The translations under genes and the position numbers were made by a program. DNA of 54,960 nucleotides from Candidatus Heimdallarchaeota archaeon. Lineage in GTDB: Archaea; Asgardarchaeota; Heimdallarchaeia; Hodarchaeales; Hodarchaeaceae. The DNA is taken from positions 2,624,298 through 2,679,257 of the forward strand of contig CP070760.1 in assembly GCA_020348965.1 (NCBI GenBank), given 5' to 3'. Positions 3,035 to 40,646 of the stretch are shown here, piece after piece. Below the pieces are notes generated by a model that saw only the letters and a list, made by a program, of their open reading frames with translations, searched no databases and was not told the DNA's origin. How positions within the stretch are numbered: the stretch's first letter is position 1; every line of letters starts with the position of its first letter.

Positions 3035-4021
3035 TTGAAAGAATACTTCATAAAGGCTAGCGATGCCTTAACAGGGTTGAATAATAGTGTTTCGACCAAT
3101 GCCCGAAGTGTTGCTGATATAACGATCAAAATTTATACAAAATTTGAAGAAATCCGATACATGAGTGAATCTATTCCTGACTACATTCTTCATCCTGATC
3201 AAACTAAGTCCAATTTGAAAGCGAGTGGCGAGATCAGAGTCGCCCAACTCCTTTCCTCAATCCTATGTGAACGAATTGCTGATCACTCAAAACGATTAGC
3301 CGAAGATCTAGATTTCGGGGAAGAGGGTCTGAATGTTCGCGAGGAAATACGCGAAATTCAAGATCAAATTAACCGATTGAACGAAGTTGTTCAAGTTCAA
3401 AAGAAATTAGCTGATGGTGCTCCTGTTTCAACCGAGAGTATTAAGGATCTGCAGAAAAAATATAATACTCGAATAAATCAGTTGGAAGAAGAACTTCTTC
3501 GAAAGGAAGGTCGTGCATTAACTATAACTGCTTTAGATGCCACAAAGAAACCCAGACTATTCGGAAAAAAGAAGTTTGAGGAAAACTTAGGTGATCTTGT
3601 GTTAGAATATGGAAAAAATCTTCGTGCAAGTTCTGGAGGATATATCTCGCTTGCACATTTATATACGGCACTCAAGGACCAAGTTCCAGATATCGAGTTT
3701 TCAGCCAAAGATCTTGAAAACGCATGTAAACGTCTCAAAAAACAATCTCTTATTGAAGGAATTACGAAAAGATCAGGAGTTAAGATAGTTGAATTTGTTC
3801 CAGTCACTCTCGGAAGTGATGCAAGGAAAGTTTTTGACTTAGCGGTTAGTAAAGGATATGTTACCTTAGAAGAAGTTGTTTTGGGGACAAAATGGGATCA
3901 ACAACGCGTGATCCGCGTTCTTGAAAGCCTTGTATCACAGAAGGTTGCACGAAAGGTTTCTTCTCTTGATACAGGAGATCAATATTATTTTCCAGGATTA
4001 TATGGAGACAGTGATTGGTAG
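3035..4021 (+). CDS. ESCRT-II Vps22/Snf8-like EAP30-domain protein with N-terminal coiled-coil extension
   Basis: The C-terminal about 150 aa align by eye with the tandem winged helices of Snf8/Vps22 (SGGYISLAHLY, SAKDLENACKRLKK, GYVTLEEVVLGTKWDQQRVIRVLESLV, QYYFPGLY). Start is uncertain: TTG at 3035 or ATG at 3161. Confidence 0.75.
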   Translation: MKEYFIKASDALTGLNNSVSTNARSVADITIKIYTKFEEIRYMSESIPDYILHPDQTKSNLKASGEIRVAQLLSSILCERIADHSKRLAEDLDFGEEGLNVREEIREIQDQINRLNEVVQVQKKLADGAPVSTESIKDLQKKYNTRINQLEEELLRKEGRALTITALDATKKPRLFGKKKFEENLGDLVLEYGKNLRASSGGYISLAHLYTALKDQVPDIEFSAKDLENACKRLKKQSLIEGITKRSGVKIVEFVPVTLGSDARKVFDLAVSKGYVTLEEVVLGTKWDQQRVIRVLESLVSQKVARKVSSLDTGDQYYFPGLYGDSDW

Positions 4022-4026
4022 GTGAA

Positions 4027-4917
4027 ATGATGGCAGAAGTAGAGAAATTTGGTGGATTATTTCACAGGATAGGAGACGCAGTTCATATTGGAACTAAAAA
4101 ATTCAAAGGAAAAGCGATTTTAAGCTCAGATTTCAGTGACGATGCAGAAAGTTCTTTAATTAATCGCTTAAAATCCGAGGATTATGATAGTTTTCGGAAG
4201 TTCGATGGTTTCATTGTTAAAGATCCAGAGAATGCAATTCTATTACAATCTGGAAGTCTAGTAGGTGTTGCTGGTAGCGGTATTTATGAACTTGACAAAC
4301 CAGCAAAACGTCCTGGTAGTGAGATAATTTGGGTAACTAAGCGTGAATTCATAATCAAATGGGGTTCACCAGGAATATACACATCTGATAATATCATGGT
4401 TGGATGTTATGGTATTTCACGCATGAGGGTTGTGAATCCTCGTAATTTTATAATGAATGTTGTTTCACACAAACAATATTATTCGGGAGAAGAATTGAAG
4501 AATTGGGTAAAACAAACTATAATTGCAGCAGTAAAGCACGTAATGTCACGTTATACGGTTCCCGAGTTATTAAAAGAACGTCGAAGTCTAGAAATACAAA
4601 CCCGTTCTGAATTAGGTCCTGAAACGTCCCGTTGGGGTTTAGAACTTGTTGGATTGGACATTGGGGGTTTTAAAGTGCCTGATGAATATCAAGCGCTCCT
4701 ATCCTATGAGGTCGAGAAACAAGTTTTAGCACAACAGCGAGAATTAGCGGAAGAGAGAAAGGAAATCGATGATGTTGCAGAGAAAGTGACGAAATACGAA
4801 CGAATGCTTGAACAAGCTGATGAGATGTTTCTCAGTGGTAAGATTTCCGAAGAAAAATACAAAAAGCTCACAGATAAATATTCTAAGAAGTTAGCACAAT
4901 TTAAGTCACAAATCTGA
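4027..4917 (+). CDS. SPFH/band-7-like protein (YdjI-type) with C-terminal coiled coil
   Basis: Pattern typical of the SPFH 'Band_7_1' family (IIWVTKREFIIKWGSPGIYTSDN..GCYGISRMRVVNPRNFI), then a heptad-rich tail. ATG 4027 is preferred over TTG 4015, which overlaps the end of the Vps22-like gene. Confidence 0.6.
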   Translation: MMAEVEKFGGLFHRIGDAVHIGTKKFKGKAILSSDFSDDAESSLINRLKSEDYDSFRKFDGFIVKDPENAILLQSGSLVGVAGSGIYELDKPAKRPGSEIIWVTKREFIIKWGSPGIYTSDNIMVGCYGISRMRVVNPRNFIMNVVSHKQYYSGEELKNWVKQTIIAAVKHVMSRYTVPELLKERRSLEIQTRSELGPETSRWGLELVGLDIGGFKVPDEYQALLSYEVEKQVLAQQRELAEERKEIDDVAEKVTKYERMLEQADEMFLSGKISEEKYKKLTDKYSKKLAQFKSQI

Positions 4918-4937: not shown

Positions 4938-6689
4938 TTAGGTCTCTTCTGTCAGATTCCCACCACATTCAGGACAAAAAGCCATTCCAACTGCACTTAT
5001 TTCTTCGTAACACTCACTACACACTTTTTTTGCACAAGACATGCATGAGAAACTAATAGTGTTGGATCGAGGAAGTTCACAGACACCACAAAGAAACCCT
5101 ACTTGACGTTTTTTTAGTTGAAACGTCAGATCACGAATATTTATCTTCCCCTGGATCGTTCCATGCAATATATATTGTTCTAGCAATTCAATTGTATCAC
5201 TATCCGAATAGTTCGAAAGTGAAATAATCCTTTTAAGAGGAATATCGGTTTCGACTGTTTGATCAAAAAATTCCGATAATCTTGGATCTAATTGCAAGGT
5301 TTCCAGTGCAATGGGTTCGTATTCCGTCCATCCCATTTTAAGGGGACCTTTTTTACAGAAATAACATTCTTCTGTATCTGTTAAGTTAAAGGAATGAGTG
5401 TAATTAACCTTACAATGTGGACAGAACCTTGGAAGATCGATTATAAAGGCTGATATATTACCGCAAAAAGGACATTCATGTTTACTTCCTGTTGAACGGC
5501 AATTGGAACACATAACCCGCCTGCAATTTTGGCATTCAAAATAAAGATGAGGATCAGTATAATCAGAAGTATCTACTTGACAAAAAATGTTAAAGTGTCT
5601 TACTCCCTTAACTAAAAACGGATTAGAAAATTCTCCAGCAATAAGTCGAAGTCTGAGAAGTTTTGCCAACTTCTGAATTTGATCTAAGAGTTGAAGTGGA
5701 TATAGATTCAGTTTTAATGCTAGACCCTCAATGTCAATTCCATTCTCAAACCAATCATTTAAGGAGGGAGCAATAAAATCTTCCGATGTCAAGGTTCCTT
5801 CTAAGCTCTGGTTTAATACATTCAACAAGTTGATAAAGTCAGCTCTATCTACATCAAGCCGATGAAGCCAGAATTCAATAGGAATGCTTTGGTAAACAAA
5901 GATATCCTTTAGAACTTGGTTAATAATATTCAATGTCAGGTACAGGTATTCATAATTGCTAGAGAAGATGAAGTTGATTTCACTTCGGTGTCTTTCCAGA
6001 AGTTCCAAACATTCGTCTTTAGGAAGTTTGGTTAATTTACTTACATGGATTAGTGCAACTTCTGATTCTAATTGAAAACTTGTATTCATGAAACGAACAA
6101 GAAATTGGACATTTTTCTTCTCATCAGCGGAAGAATCGAAGTTTAAAGAAGTTAAATTATAAATACGTTGTTTAAGTGGATCAATGTAACCGATAAATTG
6201 ATTATTTTGAGCCATGAAGTCCAATATACCTTCCAAGTGGTCTTCAGTCCAATATAGCTGGTTTAAAAGAAATTTCAAATCGATCGCTGTTGTTGTGCCT
6301 AATTTCTGTTTAATTTCTGACATTGCTCCACGTAAAGTGAAGAATTTTCGAGGAATCACATCAAAAAATCCTTCAACATCTTGTACATTCAAGACAATTT
6401 GGCGTTCTAGCAGCTTACCTGGTAAATTGGTAATATCAATTAGATCACATATGTCTACAAAGCCTTTAGTTGCCAATTCGCGGGAGATTAAACGTTGGAG
6501 GAATCTAGTTGGGATAAACAATTCATCATCGACGCTGACAAAACCATATATTTCTTTTGTACCGATTTTAGAACGTAAAAATGTAGCGATTTCATCTGAT
6601 CTCCCTCTTGGAGTCATTTCACGCAATGGGAGCGGCTGCTCTGCTGCTTGGGCTTTCACGAGCCACTGTTGATTCTTTCTCCCAAACAT
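4938..6689 (-). CDS. Large helical/winged-helix-like protein with two Cys-rich zinc modules; C-terminal C4C4 RING-like; candidate E3 ligase
   Basis: C-terminal C-x2-C-x11-C-x2-C-x4-C-x2-C-x11-C-x2-C (nt 4965-5090). Central cluster of five CxxC pairs (approx nt 5345-5537). Sits next to the E1/Ubl/E2 genes. The function is inferred only. Confidence 0.5.
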   Translation of the reverse strand: MFGRKNQQWLVKAQAAEQPLPLREMTPRGRSDEIATFLRSKIGTKEIYGFVSVDDELFIPTRFLQRLISRELATKGFVDICDLIDITNLPGKLLERQIVLNVQDVEGFFDVIPRKFFTLRGAMSEIKQKLGTTTAIDLKFLLNQLYWTEDHLEGILDFMAQNNQFIGYIDPLKQRIYNLTSLNFDSSADEKKNVQFLVRFMNTSFQLESEVALIHVSKLTKLPKDECLELLERHRSEINFIFSSNYEYLYLTLNIINQVLKDIFVYQSIPIEFWLHRLDVDRADFINLLNVLNQSLEGTLTSEDFIAPSLNDWFENGIDIEGLALKLNLYPLQLLDQIQKLAKLLRLRLIAGEFSNPFLVKGVRHFNIFCQVDTSDYTDPHLYFECQNCRRVMCSNCRSTGSKHECPFCGNISAFIIDLPRFCPHCKVNYTHSFNLTDTEECYFCKKGPLKMGWTEYEPIALETLQLDPRLSEFFDQTVETDIPLKRIISLSNYSDSDTIELLEQYILHGTIQGKINIRDLTFQLKKRQVGFLCGVCELPRSNTISFSCMSCAKKVCSECYEEISAVGMAFCPECGGNLTEET

Positions 6690-6873: not shown

Positions 6874-7191
6874 ATGAGTCACCAAAACATTAAGTGTTCA
6901 AAATGCGGCTATATTCCACGAGATCAACCTGTTTCTGGGGCTTGGTATTGCCCTAAATGTGGAAAGCGTATGACAATTGGGTCTTCTCGTCCTAAAACAA
7001 CCCGAAAATTCTATCGAAAACCTGTTACCGTTCAGAAATCACGAGATCAAGTCACAAGTCAGATTTATAGGAAGTTAGCTGTTGATAAACCAACAGATCT
7101 CGGTTTAAAAGAATCTTACATAAATCCAAAGGTTGATCCAATCTTTCCTAAGCGTAGAGATAAAATGCGATTATTCTATAAAAAGGATTAA
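6874..7191 (+). CDS. Small zinc-ribbon protein with a basic tail, function unknown
   Basis: CSKCG-x16-CPKCG ribbon at the N-terminus, then a Lys/Arg-rich tail. GAGGA Shine-Dalgarno upstream of the ATG. Confidence 0.5.
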   Translation: MSHQNIKCSKCGYIPRDQPVSGAWYCPKCGKRMTIGSSRPKTTRKFYRKPVTVQKSRDQVTSQIYRKLAVDKPTDLGLKESYINPKVDPIFPKRRDKMRLFYKKD

Positions 7192-7229: not shown

Positions 7230-8459
7230 CTACTTCTGGAATTTAATTTGCAATCGAATTTCCTCATCACCAACCAATGAGCTTAAAGTTATCCGATCAC
7301 CATCCGAGAGAAAGTCTGCTATGATTCCATCTTCAGGGAGAAGTTTATTGCCAAGAAATCCAACAGTATCTTTACTTTTCTTAGGTTGAGTTTTCTCAAA
7401 TAAAGTCTTGAATTTTGAGGATGGATCAACCTCTACTTCAAAAAATGTTTGAGAATCAATTGTGGGTTGACCACAAACAAGACAATTAGGATCAGGAACC
7501 ATCTCAAAAGTGTTTATTGACCCAGTCAAGGCTGAATAAATAAAAAGCGAAGGGATTCTAAATCTGTGAGTATCAATCAAGAAATCTAGTCTTTTCATTT
7601 CGTTTTTTTTAAAAGACGTTCTCTTTTCTAGAAAAAGAGCTTTCAGGATTTCTTGGGATTGTATTCCACTGGTTACTGCATTAACAGTTATTAAACTAGG
7701 TACACGGAAAAGTATTAGTTGCAGGAGTTCTTTTTCGTCGAAATTACTATAGTTATATTTTTTAGCATATTTATTAGCAAAATTCGTGAGTATGGAAAGA
7801 TCCTCTTGAGAGGTTTCTAATGGTTCGCGATCATATGACGTGTTGAAGTCGTAGAGTGCTTTCCATGCACAATGTTCTCTTTGGCGGGGAGCCCCCACGA
7901 GTGTACATGGAGCTGTCAATATACGAGTTTCGTCCGGAGGAGCCGGATTATCACAGGCAAGACAGGCTGTTTTTCTAGGATTAATATATTGTACTTGGCC
8001 AAAAAAACCATCTGTAGCAGAATCGATCAGCGGTTTATTCAATTCAACCGCCATCGCATTAATAAATTGCCTTGCCAAGAAATTATCAACACACCCAGCA
8101 ATGATATCTACCTCCCGAAAAGCTCTTTGAGGGATTCTTTGAAGAATATCAGGAAAACTCTCAATTTTAATATCGGGATTATATTGTTCCTGAATTCTCA
8201 TTCTTGCGATTTCTGACTTTTTCTCGCCAACATCTTCTTCTCTGAATAACATTTGACGATTTAAGTTTGAAAACTCAATGGTGTCCGCGTCGACCAAAAT
8301 TAATTTCCCAGTGCCTAAAAGAGCTAAATTTTTTGCTACCTCGCTGCCTGTCCCCCCAACTCCTGCAATTAAAATTTGACTGTCTTCAATAATTTGCTGA
8401 TCCCAAAGAGACAATCTTTTTTGACGGTCATATTTAGAAGAAGGAAGATCTTGTGACAT
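7230..8459 (-). CDS. Ubiquitin-activating enzyme E1-like (ThiF/MoeB/UBA fold with C-terminal ubiquitin-fold-like domain)
   Basis: Nucleotide loop GVGGTGSEVAKNLALLG and DADTIEFSNLNRQ. Eukaryote-like catalytic-Cys segment TAPCTLVGAPRQREHCAWKA. Zn pairs CLAC and CLVC. Confidence 0.85.
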   Translation of the reverse strand: MSQDLPSSKYDRQKRLSLWDQQIIEDSQILIAGVGGTGSEVAKNLALLGTGKLILVDADTIEFSNLNRQMLFREEDVGEKKSEIARMRIQEQYNPDIKIESFPDILQRIPQRAFREVDIIAGCVDNFLARQFINAMAVELNKPLIDSATDGFFGQVQYINPRKTACLACDNPAPPDETRILTAPCTLVGAPRQREHCAWKALYDFNTSYDREPLETSQEDLSILTNFANKYAKKYNYSNFDEKELLQLILFRVPSLITVNAVTSGIQSQEILKALFLEKRTSFKKNEMKRLDFLIDTHRFRIPSLFIYSALTGSINTFEMVPDPNCLVCGQPTIDSQTFFEVEVDPSSKFKTLFEKTQPKKSKDTVGFLGNKLLPEDGIIADFLSDGDRITLSSLVGDEEIRLQIKFQK

Positions 8460-8520: not shown

Positions 8521-8841
8521 CTAACCCCCTTTAATCTGATCAGGAACGATCATGAGGATCGCATTCTGTTCTATTCCATAAGAGGAAAGATTATTCGAGG
8601 GATTCATTCGCCGACCTTTGAATAATAGGGCGATGGGTACTACTTCTGGAATGTTGAAAGCATCTCTAGCCGCATTGATAGCTTGAAATACTGTCCCGTT
8701 GATATTGATGTATTTTTCCCGAATATTTTGATCTGGGGGGAGTTGTGGATCTTTAAATCGTACTTTTATCATTTTTTCAATACCACTATCAGGAGCTTTT
8801 CCTGGAGTAGTAGAATCCCAAATGACATCCTTTTTACTCAT
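8521..8841 (-). CDS. Ubiquitin-like beta-grasp modifier ending in Gly-Gly-stop
   Basis: C-terminus ...MIVPDQIKGG followed directly by the stop. Beta-grasp-sized core from MIKVRFKD. ATG 8841 is preceded by AGGTGA, so it is preferred over GTG 8850. Confidence 0.8.
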   Translation of the reverse strand: MSKKDVIWDSTTPGKAPDSGIEKMIKVRFKDPQLPPDQNIREKYININGTVFQAINAARDAFNIPEVVPIALLFKGRRMNPSNNLSSYGIEQNAILMIVPDQIKGG

Positions 8842-8858
8842 ATTTTTCACCTTTCTGT

Positions 8859-9644
8859 TTAAGTATAAAACATTCGTTCAATTTCTGAGAGCGTGGAGAG
8901 AAGGTCTATCCGTCCCTTAACATAATCCTCCAAAGGCCCTCGTATCAGTGGATATTTAGTTAAAACCTCACTATCTAATCCAATCGGAAAATTCTTTTTA
9001 CGCTTGACGATTAAATTTATCACTTCGCCATCCTGAGCATAAAATCGCACAGTAACCTCTTTTTTCCCTGCTGTCGCATCATAGTTCGTCAATATTTGTT
9101 GTATGAGAGGATTGCGTTCAGCTGGTACGGTGGTAGTTTCAGCAGCAACGTGTTCACCCATTACCTGGGGAAGAGCGACTTCAGCTTTTTGATGAATCTC
9201 CTCTAAAACATCTAACACTGAACTTGTTCCAGGAGTCCAATTTTTCATCGTATCTAGGTCATTAATTTCGCAATCTAAAATTTCTCTGAGTTTAGCTGGG
9301 CCGTCGATGTAGGGTCGGTCAGGAAGGTCATCCAACACAAGTAACAGCGGAAAAGCATATTCACTTACTTGCATCTTTATCCTAACCTTACCCACTTCAT
9401 CACCAACTAATTCTCCAAGAAAATTTTCAAGGACTTTCTGCGATTCTTGATAAATGTGATAGTAATCTTCAGCTTCCTCCTCAACCTCAATCGTTTTCGC
9501 TTCCGTTGGCGTTAAAGCAGTCCTCTTCAAGTAATTTGTTAGGTCACAGTATTCACATTTAATAGGGTGATTAAATGTGGGTCTTAAAGCAAGAGGTGCT
9601 CCACAGCCGTTACATTGGGAAACATCAGTTACCATATCGCTCAT
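8859..9644 (-). CDS. Zinc-ribbon protein with two alpha/beta modules, unknown function; first gene of the Ubl-E1 transcription unit
   Basis: N-terminal CNGCG-x17-CEYC ribbon. Same strand as the Ubl gene, which begins 17 nt downstream of its stop (from ATG 8841). Confidence 0.6.
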   Translation of the reverse strand: MSDMVTDVSQCNGCGAPLALRPTFNHPIKCEYCDLTNYLKRTALTPTEAKTIEVEEEAEDYYHIYQESQKVLENFLGELVGDEVGKVRIKMQVSEYAFPLLLVLDDLPDRPYIDGPAKLREILDCEINDLDTMKNWTPGTSSVLDVLEEIHQKAEVALPQVMGEHVAAETTTVPAERNPLIQQILTNYDATAGKKEVTVRFYAQDGEVINLIVKRKKNFPIGLDSEVLTKYPLIRGPLEDYVKGRIDLLSTLSEIERMFYT

Positions 9645-9802: not shown

Positions 9803-10411
9803 ATGGATATTTCTTTTAAAAACTTGGTTAAATACCTTCTTAAATATATTGTGGATGGTACCAACGTGCAGGATTTACACTCCAGACGGCTAAGAGAAGA
9901 GTTTAAACGGATGTTGAAAACCTATCCGCCAAAAACAAGCTCTATTAAGTGGGTCATTGTAAATAACGACCTACATAATTATAAAGCAACAATTAAAGGG
10001 AAATCAAATACTCCATATGAAAAAGGTGAATGGGAAATCACAGTCGATTTACCACCTGAATATCCCTTTCGTCCTCCCATTATCAATTTCCTAACTCCCA
10101 TCTGGCATCCGAATATCTCTGTTGGTCAAACACGATGGAAGTGGGGGAGTAACGTATGTTTAAGCCTTGTGAATTGGAATAATATGGGGAAATCAGGTGG
10201 TTGGAAAGAAACGATAACTTTGCCAAGTGTATTTGAACACATTGAAATGATGTTGGATGTTTATCGTGCAACAGGGGATGTTGACTTTCCAGAATATCTC
10301 GTGGATCCGAATGATCCATTTAATCCTGAAGCAGGGGAACAGATGAGGAAAAAATTTGATAACTTCTGGCAACAGGCTGTCGAATGGACCGAGAAACACG
10401 CTATTGATTAA
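9803..10411 (+). CDS. Ubiquitin-conjugating enzyme E2 (UBC fold)
   Basis: RRLREEFKRM helix 1, PYEKGEWEITVDLPPEYPFRPP, HPN motif (WHPNIS) and catalytic Cys in NVCLSL. Confidence 0.85.
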   Translation: MDISFKNLVKYLLKYIVDGTNVQDLHSRRLREEFKRMLKTYPPKTSSIKWVIVNNDLHNYKATIKGKSNTPYEKGEWEITVDLPPEYPFRPPIINFLTPIWHPNISVGQTRWKWGSNVCLSLVNWNNMGKSGGWKETITLPSVFEHIEMMLDVYRATGDVDFPEYLVDPNDPFNPEAGEQMRKKFDNFWQQAVEWTEKHAID

Positions 10412-10439: not shown

Positions 10440-11024
10440 ATGTCTAAAGAAAGAAAACAAGAAGAACTATCTAAAGAAGAAACCGGGTCCGAGATCAAAG
10501 ATAACATGAATCCTCAAATAGAAAATCTGGATGAACCTGAAGATTCCACAATTTCTTTGACTTCTAAAGTGAAATCTGTGACCATTTTAGGAAATTTACT
10601 TGATGACATGACTGAATATGCCCACAAAGCAATGCCTAGGGAAGCCATTGGTCTATTGGGCGGAACGGAATTTCGTCCTTCAGAATTAAAAGTGTCAAAA
10701 ATACTGTTTGTAACCGAGGGTGATGAAGTTTCTGTATCCTTCTCGGATGAGGATTTCAACTCATTCCAAGAAATACTCGAAGGCGATCTGTATTGTTGTG
10801 GGTGGTGGCATTCTCATCCTGGATATGGACTATTTCTCTCACAAACGGATATAACAACTCAGATTTACTCCTTTCAGCTTCACAATGATATTTCCGTCGC
10901 CCTTGTGGTTGAACCTACGTCAATCGGTGCTAATGGGCGTGCTGCTTTCCAGTTTTATCAAGTTGTTGGTGAAGAGGGGAAAACTCCTTTTACATACAAA
11001 GAGATTGCTAGTTATATTCAATAG
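10440..11024 (+). CDS. JAB1/MPN/JAMM metalloisopeptidase (Rpn11-like deubiquitinase)
   Basis: Upstream Glu (PREAIGLLGG) and JAMM motif HSHPGYGLFLSQTD. Lies 28 nt downstream of the E2 gene. Confidence 0.85.
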   Translation: MSKERKQEELSKEETGSEIKDNMNPQIENLDEPEDSTISLTSKVKSVTILGNLLDDMTEYAHKAMPREAIGLLGGTEFRPSELKVSKILFVTEGDEVSVSFSDEDFNSFQEILEGDLYCCGWWHSHPGYGLFLSQTDITTQIYSFQLHNDISVALVVEPTSIGANGRAAFQFYQVVGEEGKTPFTYKEIASYIQ

Positions 11025-11213
11025 TAGTGGAACTATTTAATCTCCCAGCATTCTTGAACACAATATTCTGATATGAGAGCTGTTAAGAAAGCGATTAGAT
11101 TTATTCAAGAAATGAATTGCCACTAGGTTTATTCAACAAATAGAAGGGAGATGGATTGAAAGTTCTATCAGACGTAAGAAAAACGATTTAAATTTCTAAA
11201 ATTTTTGTTGTCT

Positions 11214-12014
11214 ATGAGTCTGATGATGAGATCAATTGGTTTTACAGAGTTTTTCTTAAAATATCTTATTCAGATTTTCCTTCAAGACGCATATACCATT
11301 GTTGATATGTTTATAATTTTTTTAGGCCCTGGAACAGTTTTATTTTTTACTTTCTATCTTATGTGGTCTGGAAGACGGAAAAATCACAAAATAATGAAAC
11401 TGACACGAGAAGCCCTTCTAGAAGTCTTTTCAGATGAATTTAGTGATCTTGTAATGGATGAAATGAGTTCAAACGGTGGTTTATTATATCCAAAGTACAA
11501 GAAATCATTCGATTCGCCTTTTAAAGATTTCCGTGTTGTATTTGCATTGGAAGAAAGGCATCTCATGTTATCGGTAATAATCTCTAAGTTTTCAGGTGTA
11601 AATGACTACATTGCTCTGGAAGCCAACTCAAAAAAAGGAAAAATTCCGACTAAAATTCAAATTATACCCAAACATGAAGAAGGTCAGATAAAAAAACACC
11701 AAGATTTACTTTTCACCCTTGATGAAATTCAACTAAGGGTACAAAAATTAGATGATTTCTTTGTACTCAAAGCAACATCACAACGGAGTGGGACCTATTT
11801 TCTTGGTGATAAAGAGCTCCTGAAACTAATCTATACTCTTCGGAAGGTAATCGTTCGAATTTCTATCGATTCTGGGGAAGATCCAGCAATTCGTATCTAT
11901 GCAAGAATTAATGAAGATTTAAATCTCGAAAAATTACATGAATTATTTCTTGTCCTTTGTAAACGGGTTGATGAGGTCTCTGAAAAAGTTGTTATGAAGA
12001 AAAGACGTGGATAA
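11214..12014 (+). CDS. Membrane-anchored hypothetical protein
   Basis: One or two N-terminal hydrophobic helices, then a soluble alpha/beta region. No recognisable motif. Confidence 0.45.
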   Translation: MSLMMRSIGFTEFFLKYLIQIFLQDAYTIVDMFIIFLGPGTVLFFTFYLMWSGRRKNHKIMKLTREALLEVFSDEFSDLVMDEMSSNGGLLYPKYKKSFDSPFKDFRVVFALEERHLMLSVIISKFSGVNDYIALEANSKKGKIPTKIQIIPKHEEGQIKKHQDLLFTLDEIQLRVQKLDDFFVLKATSQRSGTYFLGDKELLKLIYTLRKVIVRISIDSGEDPAIRIYARINEDLNLEKLHELFLVLCKRVDEVSEKVVMKKRRG

Positions 12015-12041: not shown

Positions 12042-12605
12042 TTACATAAGGTCAAGTTTCTCTGTAACCCTCTGACGTAACCACTCAAGTCCTTCTTCGA
12101 CATTGAAACCCGTTTTAGCAGAGGTAGGAACAATCGCATAAGAGTGAGTAGTGACTTTATGAAGATTAAGGGCTCGAGCCACCTCTCCTGCAGAAGCTGC
12201 ATTTTCTAGATCCTGTTTATTAGCAAGGACTAGAATGGGAATATTTTCAACTCGATCATTGTCGAGGACATATTTCCAAAGCTCTGCTTGGGCTTCTGGA
12301 AATCGGTAATTATCAGCTGAGTCGACAACATATACAATTCCCATAGAACCAGCCATATAACTTTCCCAAAGAGATTCACGGAAGGCTTCTTGGCCTCCTA
12401 TGTCCCAAGAAATGAATCTAACATTTCCTGAGCTAAATTCATCAACATTCATACCCAATGTTCGGAAAGTACTACCATCAAATTCTCCAGAGGTTATCCT
12501 TCTTACAATAGTGGTTTTTCCAGCGTGGTCGAGACCCAACCACGCAATCTTCACTGTTAATTTCTCTTTGGCAATCTTTGCACGGAGCTTTGAAAGAAAA
12601 CTCAT
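12042..12605 (-). CDS. Arf/Arl-family small GTPase
   Basis: P-loop GLDHAGKTT, Arf-type switch II WDIGGQEAFR, NKQDL, SAKTG. N-terminal amphipathic segment MSFLSKLRAKIAK. Confidence 0.85.
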   Translation of the reverse strand: MSFLSKLRAKIAKEKLTVKIAWLGLDHAGKTTIVRRITSGEFDGSTFRTLGMNVDEFSSGNVRFISWDIGGQEAFRESLWESYMAGSMGIVYVVDSADNYRFPEAQAELWKYVLDNDRVENIPILVLANKQDLENAASAGEVARALNLHKVTTHSYAIVPTSAKTGFNVEEGLEWLRQRVTEKLDLM

Positions 12606-12614
12606 TTAGAGCAC

Positions 12615-13166
12615 CTATACGTTTTTCCGTGACATTTGTCTACGGAACTTGTCACTCATCCACTGCCAAGGTTCATCGACACCTTCACCAGTCAGTGCTG
12701 AACAAGGATAAACTGCAAAGGATCTAGGTCTTGCAGCCATCTCTTTTTCAAGGCCTAATGTGTGAATGATGCTTTCAAGAGACATGGCTTCTTCTAAATC
12801 TTGCTTGTTTGCCAAAAAAAGAAAAGCAGAGTCTTCTGGCGACCATTGAATAACATTTTTTAGCCATTTTCCAGCTTTTTCTACCTTAGATCTATCTGCT
12901 GAGTCAAAAACGAATACAATTCCTGAAGCTTTTGATACAAATGGTTCCCATAGGCTGGTGGGGTATGTTGGTTGTCCTCCTAAATCTGCTGCCATTACTT
13001 CAATGTCGCCTATCTTTAGGGTTTCAATATTCATCCCCATCGTTGGTACGGTCTCTAGATTTTCATCTCCCTTAAGTCTTTTTACCAAAGTTGTCTTTCC
13101 TGCATTTGCTAGGCCAACAAAAGCCATTTGATTTTCTATCTCACGTCCGAATAGTTTTGTAGGCAT
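12615..13166 (-). CDS. Arf/Arl-like small GTPase (divergent paralog)
   Basis: GLANAGKTT, DLGGQ, NKQDL, CSALTG. Lies 9 nt upstream of the other Arf-like gene. Confidence 0.8.
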   Translation of the reverse strand: MPTKLFGREIENQMAFVGLANAGKTTLVKRLKGDENLETVPTMGMNIETLKIGDIEVMAADLGGQPTYPTSLWEPFVSKASGIVFVFDSADRSKVEKAGKWLKNVIQWSPEDSAFLFLANKQDLEEAMSLESIIHTLGLEKEMAARPRSFAVYPCSALTGEGVDEPWQWMSDKFRRQMSRKNV

Positions 13167-17557: not shown

Positions 17558-18259
17558 TTAAAATTGTTTGTGCCCGAACTCCAAAATATCTAGAATTTGG
17601 GAAACCCCTCTTGGTAAGCTGAATCGCTGGTTGTCCCAATCAGCAATTATGAGACGTCTCCAAGAGGCGAATTGAAGCTGGGAATAAACTTCTTCTTGGG
17701 GTTGTTGAATGTTCTTAGCAATCTCAATGAGTTCTCCATTCGATTTTTTTACAGCTAAAAGAATGTGATAGTATTCCTTAATCGCGTTAAGCACAATTAA
17801 GCCCAAGGCATGCTCAATTTTTTCCCCAGTTCTCGCTGATGTCCCTACTACTGAAATTTTATCCTTATTTTTCCCTAGAACTGCTTCTGCTACTTCCTTG
17901 GGGCTTTTCGCACCTCGAATGTCCTGTTTGTTTGCACAGAGGACAAGAGGAACACCTGGCAGGATATCATAAACTTCTTCCAGGAGTCTTTCAGCCTCTT
18001 CGAAAGAGGCAATATTTACAGAATCAACAATAAAAAGAATCCCATCGGCTCCTTTACTGAGAATTTTTCGGATAACTTCAAATCGTTGGAGCCCCGGTGT
18101 ACCAAATAGGAAGATTTCAACTCCATAAATTTGTGTTCGGCAGTGATCTAAAGCAACAGTTGTTCCGCCATAATCGATAGAGATTGCAGAGTCACTGCAT
18201 ATCATGTGAACAGTTGTTGTTTTGCCAGAATTGTAAGGTCCTAATAAAACTATCTTCAT
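17558..18259 (-). CDS. Small GTPase of the archaeal MglA-like/COG2229 type with a C-terminal extension of about 75 aa
   Basis: GPYNSGKTT, FGTPGLQRF, NKQD, TSARTG. The tail has a helix-rich, winged-helix-like pattern. Confidence 0.7.
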   Translation of the reverse strand: MKIVLLGPYNSGKTTTVHMICSDSAISIDYGGTTVALDHCRTQIYGVEIFLFGTPGLQRFEVIRKILSKGADGILFIVDSVNIASFEEAERLLEEVYDILPGVPLVLCANKQDIRGAKSPKEVAEAVLGKNKDKISVVGTSARTGEKIEHALGLIVLNAIKEYYHILLAVKKSNGELIEIAKNIQQPQEEVYSQLQFASWRRLIIADWDNQRFSLPRGVSQILDILEFGHKQF

Positions 18260-24312: not shown

Positions 24313-27300
24313 TTAAATGAATTGCTCTTTTTCCTTAGCTCGTCTTATAGAAAGTTCTAGCGCGCTTTTCAAGATTTTTAAAAAAGATATTCCTTTAGAT
24401 GTAATAATGTAGTGCCGATATCGTCCATCATGAAGAACTTGAGGGGTAACATGAAAATCAAGGTAGTTAAGTTTTATTAGTTTTTTTAATTCATCCGAAA
24501 GAGTTGATGCGGGGATATCTAGGGCTTGAGACAACTTAGTAAGATTAGCGTCCTCTGAATACTGGAAAGCTATTTCTATCAATGTTAGTATGGTTCTTCC
24601 TTTTAATTTTGTTTTTAATTCCACACGATAATCATCTGGAAACCACGTAACTAAGCTTGTGGGCATTGTTGGTTCTTCTAAAAGTGGAGTTACCACAGAT
24701 TCAGGCAAAATCGTGGTTTGTATGCTTTCCAGACCAACAATCACTTTATGGTATATCGGCTTTAGGAATTCAATTCTATCTGATTGGAAGTATTCAATGA
24801 AACTCGGGGCTCTAAATTTTGTGTTCACAAGGTAGTATCCTGCTGCTATGGAGCACACAGTCAGTAGAAAAGCCAATATCCACACTCCAATTCCACCTGA
24901 AGGTGAAGAGAGTTGATGAGAGTTGACAATAAGAAATGTCTCTGTAGAAACAGATTTCGTAACGAAACCAACAGAATCAATGGTATGTATTTTGAACGAA
25001 ATATTCGTTCTATCTACGATTGTGGTTGTATCAAATGTATAATTTGTTGAAGTTAACCCCGAGGCAAGCATTGTCCAATTTATTCCCTCTTCTGTTGAGT
25101 AAAAGAGGGAATAAGTAAGGGAATGCCCAAATGTATCGATTGAGGAAGTCCATTGAATGGTCACATTATTTGATAATGTCGAAGAATCGTGTGTTGGGGA
25201 CGTAATGACAGGTGCTAATAGGTGATAGGGATTTGTTAAGGGGGAGGAATCTTGATTCTCCGTCGTACCATCAATGAGATATGTTCCTGTACCCGTCCAA
25301 TCACTCCAATAGTTGTGTGCGAAGACATTATTGGAACCATTATCAACTGCCTGAGAGCCTTCAGCATTATTCCTACTAAAATCATTGAACTGCACGAAGT
25401 TATATTTACTGAGTTCATCGGTAATAATTCCATCTTTTAAATTGTCAAAGATAATATTCTGAGCAATCGTGTTATTCTCTGCTCCCCAGAGGTGAATTCC
25501 ATGTAAATTGGTCTTGAAAACAATATTATTTGAAATTGTCGTATTCTCCGAGGCTTCAAGAGTAATGCCATATAGACTATTATTACCAACTCTATTATTA
25601 CAAACCATGTTGTCATAAGTTAAGTATAGAAAGATATCTCCACGGTTATTATAACCAGTATTATTAATTAGAGTGGTTTTATTGGTGTAGTGATGAAGGT
25701 TAATACCCCATCGGTTATCATGAAGAGTATTATTACTTATAGTTAAATGAGAACAGAAAACAGCTGATACCCCCATATAGGTGTTAGATATAGTCTGGTC
25801 AGCAATGAGTACATTTGTACAATTGAACAAAAAAACCTGGCCAGCTCCTTGCGGAACGGTTCCCCCATTTGTATCTTCCCAATAGATAAATGGTTTCCCA
25901 TTTATGGAGTTATTCGCAACTATTTTTTGTTTATAATTCTTAATGTTTGGACCCACAAAGCCAATTCCCTTATTTGTAAGAGAATTATTTTCGATAGAAT
26001 TATGCTTTGAATCATCAACAAGTATTCCATGTCTGTTATGGTCTACTATTTCAGTAGCGTGAACGGTATTCTTGATTATGATAGTATTACTGGATTTTTC
26101 GACCCAAATCCCATATTTATTGTTATACACACTGTTCTTAATCAGATTGTTATAGCTACTATTCCAAAGCCAGATACCTGCCCAGAAGTTACTGTAAGCT
26201 GTATTATTGATAATAGAATTATTCTCAGATAATGATAGTTCAATCCCATGTATGTTATTATTATAGATATCATTACGTGTAATTGTATTGTTATCACTAT
26301 TACGATTGATCCCTAGATCATCAAATGGACTTAAGGAAATCCCAGTTATCATATTATTGTAGATTGAATTATTGAGAACAGAGTTATTAATAGAACCGAA
26401 AAGATGAATTCCATCATTGGTATTATCAAACACTTCGTTGTTAGTAACTATTGTAGTATTAGCTAATGTTACGCTAATTCCATGCCTACCGTTATTTCTG
26501 ATAATATTATTTGAAACAACCGTATTCTTGGAAACATATATTAGCATTCCATTGTCAAAATTATCGATCACAGTGTTATTGGATATAATAGCGGAGGAAT
26601 TACTCAGACTAATACCACTTGTCCAATAATCCGAGATACCCGACCCCGAGACGTTTCGGCTATTATTGAAACAGGTATTATTGATAATGGTATTGAAAAT
26701 ATCTAGATTGACTTGAGATAGTGAGACGAGAATTCCACTCCCTCCACTATTATAAATGGTATTTGAATAAAGGGTGTTATTATTGGAATCAGCCTCCCCT
26801 ACGCCAATTCCACGTGTACCGTGATTATACACAGTATTATGGGAAAGGATGTTATCACTGGAGGAGAAGAGTAAAATTCCCGTGTACGGGTGATCGTGAA
26901 TGGAGTTATTAGAAATAAAGTTGTTACTAGATTCTCTTAGACCGATTCCATTCCAATCATTCTCATGAATAGAATTATTGAATATTTTGTTATTGTCAGC
27001 ATCCTCAATAGCAATACCACTTCCATTATTACAATAAGCTTGATTCCTAATGATAAAACAATTATTTGAACCTGATTCAATGTTAATTCCCGCTCCACCT
27101 GAATTATAAATGGTATTGGATTCAATTGTATTGTTTTCAGATGCCGAAACCAGAATACCATTCCAGCTATTGTCATAGATCGTATTATTGACAATAGTAC
27201 CATGACTGACATCATCAAAATAGATCCCATTCCCTATAGTTCCTAATCCATTGACAAGACAATTTGCAACATGGAAATGATAAGTCGTGTCACTAATAGA

Positions 27301-27741
27301 AATGAGTGTTCCACTTGAAGCAGTGATATTGTACCCTTCAATCCGAATAGGATCATCAATGGTGCCATTGCCTTGAAATCCCGAATTATTTAATTGAAAA
27401 TCCGAGGCAATGATAATCGGTCCGCGTTCGATATACGATTGAGTACTAGAGATTTTATGGATAGGGTGTTGAGAGTGTTTTTCCCTCGTATTCGTGTGTT
27501 TCTCCTCACTTATAGGTTGAAATTCCCGCAGATTTACCTGATCATTCTTCTCACCCCCAATAAACGATCCTGTTGTACTACCCACCAAAATTTTTATATC
27601 AGAGGAAGGTGTTAATTTTTTATTTTGATCTCTGTAGATATTATCTGCAAAACAAAGAGTAGAGTAATTTATAAACACAAATATCAGAATTAAAATAAAA
27701 AAAACAGTTTTATGGTTCATTCGATGTTTTTTATGCCCCAT
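24313..27741 (-). CDS. Giant type I membrane protein: signal peptide, about 30 parallel beta-helix (PbH1/NosD-like) repeats, Ig-like domain, TM helix, cytoplasmic winged-helix (ArsR/MarR-like) domain
   Basis: N-terminal HKTVFFILILIFVFINYSTLCFA. Repeated N-N-[ST]-[IV]-x-x-N...GI units. TM GGIGVWILAFLLTVCSIAAGYYLV (nt 24826-24897) followed by NTKFR. wHTH-like LTKLSQALDIPASTLSDELKKLIKLNYLD...DGRYRHYIITSKG (nt about 24370-24597). Confidence 0.7.
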   Translation of the reverse strand: MGHKKHRMNHKTVFFILILIFVFINYSTLCFADNIYRDQNKKLTPSSDIKILVGSTTGSFIGGEKNDQVNLREFQPISEEKHTNTREKHSQHPIHKISSTQSYIERGPIIIASDFQLNNSGFQGNGTIDDPIRIEGYNITASSGTLISISDTTYHFHVANCLVNGLGTIGNGIYFDDVSHGTIVNNTIYDNSWNGILVSASENNTIESNTIYNSGGAGINIESGSNNCFIIRNQAYCNNGSGIAIEDADNNKIFNNSIHENDWNGIGLRESSNNFISNNSIHDHPYTGILLFSSSDNILSHNTVYNHGTRGIGVGEADSNNNTLYSNTIYNSGGSGILVSLSQVNLDIFNTIINNTCFNNSRNVSGSGISDYWTSGISLSNSSAIISNNTVIDNFDNGMLIYVSKNTVVSNNIIRNNGRHGISVTLANTTIVTNNEVFDNTNDGIHLFGSINNSVLNNSIYNNMITGISLSPFDDLGINRNSDNNTITRNDIYNNNIHGIELSLSENNSIINNTAYSNFWAGIWLWNSSYNNLIKNSVYNNKYGIWVEKSSNTIIIKNTVHATEIVDHNRHGILVDDSKHNSIENNSLTNKGIGFVGPNIKNYKQKIVANNSINGKPFIYWEDTNGGTVPQGAGQVFLFNCTNVLIADQTISNTYMGVSAVFCSHLTISNNTLHDNRWGINLHHYTNKTTLINNTGYNNRGDIFLYLTYDNMVCNNRVGNNSLYGITLEASENTTISNNIVFKTNLHGIHLWGAENNTIAQNIIFDNLKDGIITDELSKYNFVQFNDFSRNNAEGSQAVDNGSNNVFAHNYWSDWTGTGTYLIDGTTENQDSSPLTNPYHLLAPVITSPTHDSSTLSNNVTIQWTSSIDTFGHSLTYSLFYSTEEGINWTMLASGLTSTNYTFDTTTIVDRTNISFKIHTIDSVGFVTKSVSTETFLIVNSHQLSSPSGGIGVWILAFLLTVCSIAAGYYLVNTKFRAPSFIEYFQSDRIEFLKPIYHKVIVGLESIQTTILPESVVTPLLEEPTMPTSLVTWFPDDYRVELKTKLKGRTILTLIEIAFQYSEDANLTKLSQALDIPASTLSDELKKLIKLNYLDFHVTPQVLHDGRYRHYIITSKGISFLKILKSALELSIRRAKEKEQFI

Positions 27742-28124
27742 CAACACCCTAGCCCCTTATCTTGATTGCATTCTGTCATTCGATCCGTTACTTCATTAAT
27801 AGCAGAATAATACTCAAATCTTGAATAGTTGTTTTGGAGATCATCAATTATTATTACTTTTCCATTTTTAAATGAAATCTACTTATTCACCATCGTTAAA
27901 ATACCAAAGAGAATTTAGTTTACATATTAGATTCAATAGTTTTAATTTCTTCCTCCATAAAATTGCTGAATCTAAATCGGAACTTTAATACTGTTCAGTT
28001 TATCAGCTTTCAATCACAATTAAACATGATTTTGACGCATCTATGAACCCTTTATCGCTTATAACCACAAATAAAAGGAAAATCCCCCAACACCATCTGT
28101 CACATTCAAAGGAAACAAGTAAAA

Positions 28125-40453: not shown

Positions 40454-40646
40454 AATAATCCATCCTAGCAAGTATAAAAATCAATATTGTTTCCTTTTTA
40501 TGGTTTTTTAGCTTGAATGCTTAAAAGAGATTAAGACTACGATCATTAATAAATATACCTAGATTGGCTTGATAGTCAGAAGATAGGGTTCTATTATAGA
40601 ATTACGATTCAACTGAGAAAGGAGCCGTTGTTTAGGCTTGAATAAA

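Follow-up and report, generated by a model that had tools for sequence, protein, structure and literature searches.

Which protein acts as the ligase (E3) where an archaeal gene cluster encodes the other parts of a ubiquitin-like conjugation system? This question arises in a stretch of 54,960 nucleotides (nt) from contig CP070760.1 of a Hodarchaeales archaeon (Candidatus Heimdallarchaeota), which we analysed as a whole and call the window. Genes for an activating enzyme (E1), a conjugating enzyme (E2), a ubiquitin-like modifier and a JAB protease lie there close to an open reading frame (ORF) at 4938..6689 on the minus strand. The 583-amino-acid (aa) product of this ORF is the target of the present analysis, and a preliminary description of the DNA had named it the candidate E3 of the locus. 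On balance, we favour the view that the target is an E3-type ligase or adaptor of the adjacent canonical ubiquitin-like conjugation system. E2 binding, ligase activity and the substrate are parts of this view that we infer, the E3 activity from the genomic context. Structure prediction and homology give the target a predicted anatomy of a UFL1-like helix and about six winged helices, followed by two units that each join a winged helix to a binuclear cross-brace.

The target is identical to JSV04_13075, a protein from a metagenome-assembled genome (MAG) of Candidatus Heimdallarchaeota that NCBI names 'hypothetical'. It has 63 further relatives with 42-86% identity, nearly all of about 583 aa, and the named ones came from MAGs of Heimdallarchaeota, Hodarchaeales or Promethearchaeota. 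In a scan of one genome per species, 22 genomes contained the gene, most of them carrying a Hodarchaeota or Heimdallarchaeota label. We regard the product as a Hodarchaeales-wide UFL1-like protein with zinc modules. Conservation was assessed in an alignment of 43 homologues (42-86% identity). Alignment of the homologues begins at residue 1, which supports the start codon of the target. When the target was searched as a single sequence in Pfam, NCBIfam and the Protein Data Bank (PDB), the matches were marginal only (PCI, zinc ribbons and L37ae), and family profiles were therefore needed.

The N-terminal UFL1-like scaffold

The AlphaFold2 (AF2) model of the target, built from the alignment, had a predicted local distance difference test (pLDDT) value of 89 and a predicted template modelling (pTM) score of 0.77. 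It showed a helix at residues 2-15, followed by about six winged helices up to approximately residue 363. The UFL1 likeness of this N-terminal part (residues 1-363, 5601..6689; all features within the target lie on the minus strand) emerged from the model, from Foldseek, from profile searches of the PDB and from the Pfam family PF09743. The top five Foldseek matches in the PDB were all human UFL1, with E-values from 6.7e-10 (8ohd_A) to 4.2e-8 and with 8qfc_B, 8b9x and 9gy4_E among them. Far weaker matches to SelB, ESCRT-II, PCI subunits and Nse1 followed. UFL1 chains were also the top four matches of the family profile among PDB sequences (E 4e-6 to 2e-5), and the match was collinear from the N-terminus, with query residues 22-103 on UFL1 20-102. 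The predicted scaffold of the target, an N-terminal helix followed by tandem winged helices, resembles that of the solved UFL1. The preliminary description had reported a weak impression of UFL1-type repeats in this region, which was borne out by UFL1 being the top match by profile as well as by fold (E 7e-10).

The Pfam model E3_UFM1_ligase (PF09743) matched 24 of the 43 family members, and one member, P0037, scored above its gathering cutoff (27.5 bits against 23.2). An exhaustive search of representative sequences gave no eukaryotic UFL1 at E<=1e-3; the UFL1 homology came to light solely in searches of the small PDB set, in Pfam matches or in the fold. Taken together, prediction and homology identify the N-terminal part of the target as a predicted scaffold homologous to eukaryotic UFL1.

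The N-terminal helix itself (residues 2-15, 6645..6686) carries the nearly invariant K5 and W9, and P19 is invariant. This helix lines up collinearly with the stretch of human UFL1 ahead of the aligned winged helices, the UFC1-binding helix.

The family profile also reached P0144, a metagenomic protein that combines DDRGK, E3_UFM1_ligase, PCI and VPS28 domains. In P0144 (787 aa, JGI metagenome), the DDRGK domain stands directly ahead of the UFL1 part, an arrangement shared with the engineered DDRGK1-UFL1 chimera 8b9x. A single gene may therefore have given rise to both UFL1 and DDRGK1, although the domain order is no more than a hint of this.

The two zinc modules and their winged helices

Scripted location of the Cys residues placed the C-terminal pairs of the target at C534/C537, C549/C552, C557/C560 and C572/C575. 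The resulting spacing, C-x2-C-x11-C-x2-C-x4-C-x2-C-x11-C-x2-C (nt 5090-4965), agreed exactly with the pattern and position given in the preliminary description. The second cluster of five CxxC pairs that it had mentioned was also found, at residues 386, 394, 406, 423 and 442 (nt 5534-5355), together with a lone C370. The target contains nine CxxC motifs, against a maximum of six in 100,000 shuffles of the same protein. The eight C-terminal Cys, the ten Cys of the middle pairs and C370 were invariant across the 43 homologues. Despite its invariant Cys, the C-terminal domain had a mean column identity of only 47%. Among window frames of at least 50 aa, the target was the only one that fitted a relaxed RING regular expression, in agreement with the earlier statement that no other RING candidate lies near the E1 and E2 genes.

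The C-terminal C4C4 region, here called module 2 (residues 532-579, 4953..5096), was predicted to adopt a beta-beta-alpha cross-brace or treble-clef fold. It formed one compact domain both in the full-length model and in an isolated model of residues 524-583 (pLDDT 83), and the pLDDT of the module ranged from 83 to 89. The model consists of short strands, a strand ending at C549, a strand ending at C557, a nine-residue helix (558-566) that holds C560, and the last Cys pair. The helix begins at the third Cys pair (C557-x2-C560), so the arrangement is the treble-clef arrangement of cross-brace fingers and not the geometry of a second ribbon. The preliminary description had set two independent zinc ribbons against its own proposal; as far as the AF2 and Foldseek predictions tell, the region is a single domain.

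Approximately 45 of the best 50 Foldseek matches of the 60-residue model were ZZ or RING/U-box domains. The probabilities of these 50 matches were mostly above 0.8 and their query-normalised template modelling (TM) scores were 0.44-0.64. The E-values were weak (0.06-0.4), which can be attributed to the shortness of the query. ZZ matches (p62, Ada2 and BIG) had a target-normalised TM-score of about 0.7 and a root-mean-square deviation (rmsd) of 2.1-2.9 Å. Some thirty RING/U-box chains stood among the best 50, including Bre1/RNF20, TRIM37, TRIM21, RING1B, BIRC7, Nse1, TRAF3, RNF213 and Cbl-b. In the profile search of the PDB, the matches that reached the last Cys pair were the KKT2 CL domain and then mostly RINGs (MAT1 at 1e-3, TRIM32, BRE1, RNF31, TRIM56, and NOT4 at 0.019), whereas the ZZ, B-box, FYVE and C1 alignments ended after the third pair.

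Pfam models for Cys-rich domains matched module 2 widely. On the 43 C-terminal domains, DZR_2, C1_2, NOB1, RING_5, DZR, B-box and RING_4 each matched 36-43 members; RING models overall matched 31-36, with E-values no better than 3e-5 to 4e-4. All of these Cys-rich models scored below their cutoffs on the window's own module 2. Pfam cannot separate RING from DZR, C1, B-box or NOB1 on the isolated module, because Cys-rich models cross-hit one another.

The residues between the ligands bear on a possible role. Column counts in the 43 homologues gave Val in 30 and Ile in 11 at C1+2, Met in 38 and Ile in 4 at C6+4, and Pro in 37 at C7+1. We take these to be the positions where RINGs usually touch E2, as in c-Cbl, CNOT4 and similar structures. 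A V-G-M motif ahead of C7 was nearly invariant. These conserved residues of E2-contact type tilt module 2 toward a RING-like role, and they could also be structural.

Module 2 was also compared with other zinc-finger classes and departed from the defining features of each. The double-zinc-ribbon model DZR_2 matched all 43 domains, yet the models predict one domain with a helix, whose fold matches were cross-brace structures. The likeness to the ZZ zinc finger is high at the level of the fold, but the last pair is Cys-x2-Cys, and Pfam ZZ matched only 1 of the 43 members. The acidic residues of the p62 ZZ that hold the N-degron presumably lie after C1 and between C4 and C5, and column counts found the equivalent positions not conserved in the family. 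For the C1/DC1 class (PF03107), C1_2 matched 39 of the 43 domains and gave the window's own domain 15.7 bits, against a cutoff of 26. The core spacing of module 2 is common to C1/DC1, and the flanking His and the single final Cys of the ligand set tested (H-x12-C-x2-C-x13-C-x2-C-x4-H-x2-C-x7-C) are absent.

The middle cluster, residues 368-445, was the most conserved stretch of the target. It begins with zinc module 1 (residues 368-411, 5457..5588), which has the spacing C370-x2-D373-x12-C386-x2-C389-x4-C394-x2-C397-x8-C406-x2-C409 and thus an Asp at ligand 2. Alignment of module 1 (A2) with module 2 (A3) by hhalign gave a probability of 93% and an E-value of 3e-7, with the ligands in register and C537 on D373. 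The D373 position is occupied by Cys in the distant homologue P0068 and by Glu in P0074. The module 1 profile gave weak in-register matches to the RINGs of TRIM32, CesA and MAT1. Prediction and homology together indicate that the module at the C-terminus has a homologue at the start of the middle cluster, a second copy that is the better conserved of the two. The preliminary description did not recognise this duplication. H404 was rejected as a zinc ligand, being absent in P0066, P0068, P0074 and one close homologue.

Module 1 is followed by a probable zinc ribbon with invariant Cys (residues 421-447, 5349..5429), assigned from its spacing C423-x2-C426-x15-C442-x2-C445. A PCI-type winged helix (residues 469-525, 5115..5285) lies just before module 2. 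Pfam PCI matched 36 of the 43 members (best E 1.6e-8), and the assignment was supported by the AF2 secondary structure and by a weak match to the winged helix of DDRGK1. Each of the two zinc modules is preceded by a winged helix. An RBR-type ligase (contiguous RING1-IBR-RING2 with a catalytic Cys) was also considered for this region, in which module 1, ribbon, winged helix and module 2 follow one another. It was rejected in view of the intervening winged helix and of the homology between the two modules; IBR matches were marginal.

A PCI-type winged helix with a C4C4 unit recurs at the C-terminus of many other proteins (P0081-P0143), the named examples of which came from Asgard MAGs. Some of these proteins are apparently anchored in a membrane, and P0081 has two copies. 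P0087 (JSV04_02370), from the same MAG as the target, is a paralogue with hydrophobic, probably membrane-spanning stretches. The combination looks like a mobile cassette.

The gene neighbourhood, the proposed role and its alternatives

The conjugation enzymes lie on one side of the target. Next to it and divergent from it is a 105-aa ORF (6874..7191, plus strand), kept in all related loci, which has one zinc ribbon and a long basic tail and gave only weak L37ae-like and ribbon matches. The E1 (7230..8459, minus strand) has a ThiF fold according to Pfam. Its closest solved relatives were the adenylation domains of Uba1, SAE2 and NAE (5e-38), and UBA5 matched at 3e-19. The ubiquitin-like modifier (109 aa; 8521..8850, minus strand) matched Rad60-SLD and ubiquitin and has an N-terminal extension of roughly 30-45 residues ahead of the ubiquitin fold. 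It ends in Gly-Gly directly before the stop codon, so no processing is needed. A conserved 261-aa protein (8859..9644, minus strand) is always encoded between the genes for the E2 and the modifier. Its N-terminus carries a C-x2-C-x15-C-x2-C ribbon, two of its regions are well conserved ('YAFPLL..DDLPDRPY' and 'KKNYPIGL'), and no Pfam or PDB match was found for it. The UBC-type E2 (9803..10411, plus strand) has the HPN motif, the catalytic Cys and an F62-equivalent, as judged against a UBE2D2 sequence entered by hand, and carries two insertions of about seven residues around the catalytic Cys. UBE2T, UBE2K and UBE2D were its nearest solved relatives; the Pfam UFC1 score was only 0.038. The true start of the E2 is probably about 20 codons downstream of the listed one, because its orthologues begin at 'M-x-DLHSRRL'. 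Beyond the E2 lies a JAB/MPN metalloprotease identified by Pfam (10440..11024, plus strand), a putative deconjugating enzyme. The Pfam scan of the neighbours revealed no UFM1 or UFC1 match and no separate DDRGK gene.

On the other side, an SPFH/Band-7 protein (4015..4917, plus strand) is encoded convergently with the target, and an EAP30 protein (Vps22/36-like, ESCRT-II) precedes it at 3035..4021 on the plus strand; both were identified by Pfam. The gene order around the target is conserved across Hodarchaeales. It was kept at orthologues of only 42-50% identity, with the JAB, E2, 261-aa, ubiquitin-like and E1 genes and the zinc-ribbon ORF on one side, and SPFH and EAP30 on the other. In a Thor-labelled MAG (L004), a 618-aa orthologue with the same C-terminal pattern adjoins an E2, a JAB protease and an orthologous ubiquitin-like gene (L004 1330-1608), whose product ends in KGGV. 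A paralogue that lacks the last module adjoins the 618-aa orthologue.

Farther out, a 269-aa protein (11205..12014, plus strand) with a hydrophobic N-terminal stretch follows the JAB gene in synteny. A weak Pfam match of this protein to CCDC47 (PAT complex; E 0.0014) gained no support from a PDB search with a profile of four sequences, which returned no matches. Two small GTPases of the Arf family (12042-13166, minus strand), adjacent to each other, stand beside the cluster and a third lies further on (17558-18259, minus strand). A Roadblock/LC7 gene was seen near related loci. Elsewhere, the window encodes an NFACT protein of the NEMF/Rqc2 type of ribosome quality control (40638-42701, plus strand), DP2, the large subunit of PolD (868 aa, five CxxC motifs; 43463-46069, minus strand) and a NosD/beta-helix protein (1144 aa; 24313-27747, minus strand).

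If the target is an E3-type ligase or adaptor, a cascade of the following kind may be envisaged. The E1 would adenylate the modifier, which already ends in GG, and hand it over to the canonical UBC-type E2. One or both of the RING-like modules, possibly with the UFL1-like N-terminal helix, would dock the charged E2. The winged-helix array might hold the substrate or a partner. Candidates for this are the ESCRT-II-like EAP30 protein and the SPFH membrane protein encoded next to the target or, if UFL1 serves as a guide, the ribosome. The JAB protease would reverse the modification.

Several observations weigh against this reading. The window's own protein gave no PF09743 match at E<=0.1, so the UFL1 assignment rests on the family and on the fold. 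The cross-brace pairing of the ligands in module 2 is a prediction from fold similarity. Under the RING spacing pattern used, C-x2-C-x(9-39)-C-x(1-3)-[HC]-x(2-3)-C-x2-C-x(4-48)-C-x2-C, module 2 fits except at ligands 4-5, which are 4 residues apart instead of 2-3 and thus outside the classic RING range. The 4-residue spacing at this point is also found in the C4C4 RINGs of CNOT4 and p44. No Pfam RING model reached its cutoff for the window's own domain (zf-RING_5 16.2 bits against 27.9, zf-RING_4 13.0 against 27, zf-RING_2 12.4 against 27.3), and the double-zinc-ribbon, C1_2, NOB1 and B-box models scored as well as the RING models. In the column counts of the 43 homologues, the basic 'linchpin' residue that would follow the last Cys was absent. 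The E2 has K-E/K-T where UbcH5 has the SPA loop, the comparison sequence being the hand-entered UBE2D2. Of the preliminary description, the single compact cross-brace-like fold is supported by the predictions, and its RING character is tentative, since the searches do not distinguish a RING from a ZZ- or C1-like module. They place module 2 within the RING/ZZ/C1 cross-brace superfamily and do not single out the RINGs that bind E2.

The zinc modules could instead be readers of the ZZ/C1/CL type that bind a peptide end, a ubiquitin-like protein or a partner, with any ligase activity coming from the UFL1-like helix and winged helices. We consider this possible but rather unlikely. UFL1 itself functions without a RING, and C1 domains have the same core spacing, C-x2-C-x4-C-x2-C. 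The p62 ZZ domains were the top Foldseek match of module 2 and superposed better (at the rmsd given above) than most RINGs, which lay at 4-5 Å. The module profile also found proteins with strong Pfam C1_2 (DC1) matches, and NCBI names two homologues 'DC1 domain-containing'. The best PDB sequence match of module 2 was the KKT2 CL domain (6tly, E 2e-4), which is C1-like (PMC8178753) and which a 2026 preprint describes as a reader of the free histone H3 N-terminus. However, the ZZ, B-box and C1 alignments stop short of the fourth Cys pair, and most matches that extend to it were RINGs. Pfam ZZ matched 1 of the 43 members, against 31-36 for the RING models. The family also lacks conserved acidic N-degron residues of the p62 ZZ type, and after a spacer of 11 residues it closes with Cys-x2-Cys, like MAT1 and CNOT4, and not with His-x3-His. 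The idea that the last 50 residues form two independent zinc ribbons, and that the target is a nucleic-acid-binding winged-helix regulator, is very unlikely. DZR_2 matched the C-terminal domains with a best E-value of 4e-6 and DZR matched 36 of the 43, each half of the C4C4 pattern is ribbon-like (C-x2-C-x11-C-x2-C), the RNA-binding winged helices of SelB appear among the fold matches, and the target has weak L37ae matches. These points are countered by the compact domain with its helix from the third Cys pair in both AF2 models, by the best 50 Foldseek matches being almost all cross-brace domains, and by DZR scores of the window's own domain that lie below the Pfam cutoffs in a group of models that cross-hit freely.

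The neighbours on the SPFH side suggest another role, that of an ESCRT-II-related trafficking scaffold that acts with EAP30 and SPFH, in which the winged helices would work like those of Vps22/25/36 and the zinc fingers would take on the part of the NZF fingers of Vps36, the binding of ubiquitylated cargo. In every locus seen, the EAP30 and SPFH genes adjoined the target or its orthologue. In one of them (L005 6124-9767), EAP30, SPFH and the orthologue are co-directional, with an overlap of 13 nt between the last two, and no E1 or E2 was present within 8 kb of the orthologue, which counts against the ligase reading as well. Because of this locus, the tie of the target to ESCRT-II/SPFH may be at least as tight as that to the conjugation enzymes. 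ESCRT-II structures (3cuq and 2zme) were also among the Foldseek matches of the winged helices, and fusions to Vps28 occur in other UFL1-like proteins of Asgard archaea (P0144; bioRxiv 10.1101/2020.10.19.343400). Nevertheless, the UFL1 fold matches were far stronger than those to ESCRT-II (E 7e-10 against 1e-2), the zinc modules are binuclear domains of about 45 residues and thus unlike NZF fingers, and the linkage to E2, JAB and ubiquitin-like genes recurs in the distant orthologue of the Thor-labelled MAG. A trafficking scaffold therefore seems quite unlikely to us, and an E3-type ligase or adaptor remains the reading that we prefer.

This reading bears on the origin of UFL1. Earlier work used IPR018611 to score UFL1 homologues as the 'E3' in the ubiquitin systems of Asgard archaea (PMC9192718), and UFL1 and DDRGK1 are said to have originated in Asgard archaea before UFM1, possibly with a UFM1-independent function (PMC10183829). 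Asgard UFL1 fusions, including those with Vps28, were described earlier (bioRxiv 10.1101/2020.10.19.343400). A literature search of incomplete coverage found no description of a UFL1-like protein that carries RING-like modules. UFL1 is an unusual E3 without a RING, HECT or RBR domain. The joining of a UFL1-like scaffold to two RING-like modules, in a conserved cluster of E1, E2, modifier and JAB genes, leads to a testable proposal about its ancestral role: the Asgard ancestor of UFL1 might have been a RING-type E3 for a ubiquitin-like modifier, supplied by an E1 and E2 of canonical type and active on ribosomes or at membrane sites of ESCRT-II/SPFH, and eukaryotic UFL1 (with DDRGK1) might have descended from it by loss of the zinc modules and a switch to UFC1/UFM1. 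We put this forward as a doubtful, tentative scenario. If true, an ancestral RING-type E3 would explain why UFL1 and DDRGK1 predate UFM1, and the odd 'scaffold-type' mechanism of UFL1 would be a derived state. Since about 8 kb of known sequence encodes every component, the cascade lends itself to reconstitution in vitro, and the target offers a direct test of the role of UFL1 before UFM1 existed.

Comparison with known systems

The zinc modules can be compared with several solved domains. Like module 2, the C4C4 RINGs (CNOT4, 1e4u/1ur6; TFIIH p44, 1z60; MAT1, 1g25) have eight ligands that are all or nearly all Cys and spacings of 4 ahead of the third pair and 11 ahead of the last, and the MAT1 RING shares the CPxCG ending. 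The profile E-values of these RINGs with module 2 were marginal (1e-3 to 0.4), and module 2 has C3-x2-C4 where CNOT4 has C-x-C. The p62/SQSTM1 ZZ (5ypf/6khz) and the KKT2 CL domain share with module 2 the core of C-x2-C, a short spacer and C-x2-C. However, the ZZ has His ligands at its end and a conserved acidic pocket, both of which are absent in module 2, and ZZ and CL domains are readers, not E2 recruiters.

Among complete proteins, Nse1 of the SMC5/6 kite (7dg2 and 5hvq) has a comparable order, with two winged helices followed by a RING-like domain. No other solved protein was seen among the matches of the winged helices as well as among those of the zinc module, for which its query-normalised TM-score was 0.64. 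No sequence relationship to Nse1 was detected, and its cellular context is different; the RING of Nse1 is reported to be a eukaryotic addition (bioRxiv 10.1101/2024.01.07.573240). The archaeal E3s proven so far are small RING proteins, from Caldiarchaeum (PMC5654768) and Helarchaeia (bioRxiv 10.1101/2023.07.25.550441). They occupy the same slot in clusters of E1, E2, ubiquitin and JAB genes as the target. In contrast to these short single-RING proteins, the target is a 583-aa protein with multiple winged helices and atypical all-Cys modules.

The closest relationships are those with the UFL1 superfamily. The Asgard 'E3 UFM1-protein ligase 1' homologues (IPR018611/PF09743) belong to the same superfamily and are likewise found in gene clusters of the ubiquitin system and ESCRT, whereas those described so far differ from the target in being fusions with Vps28, adaptin or DDRGK. 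Eukaryotic UFL1 (8ohd, 8qfc, 8b9x and 8c0d) differs from the target in having no zinc modules, a length of about 790 aa and a different C-terminal half, and the identity is about 11%. UFL1 works with UFM1, UBA5, UFC1 and DDRGK1, whereas the target is accompanied by a Uba1/SAE2-like E1 and a canonical UBC E2. Nonetheless, both proteins begin with an N-terminal helix followed by tandem winged helices, the PCI-type winged helix of the target resembles that of the UFL1 partner DDRGK1, and both are tied, genetically or functionally, to a ubiquitin-like conjugation cascade.

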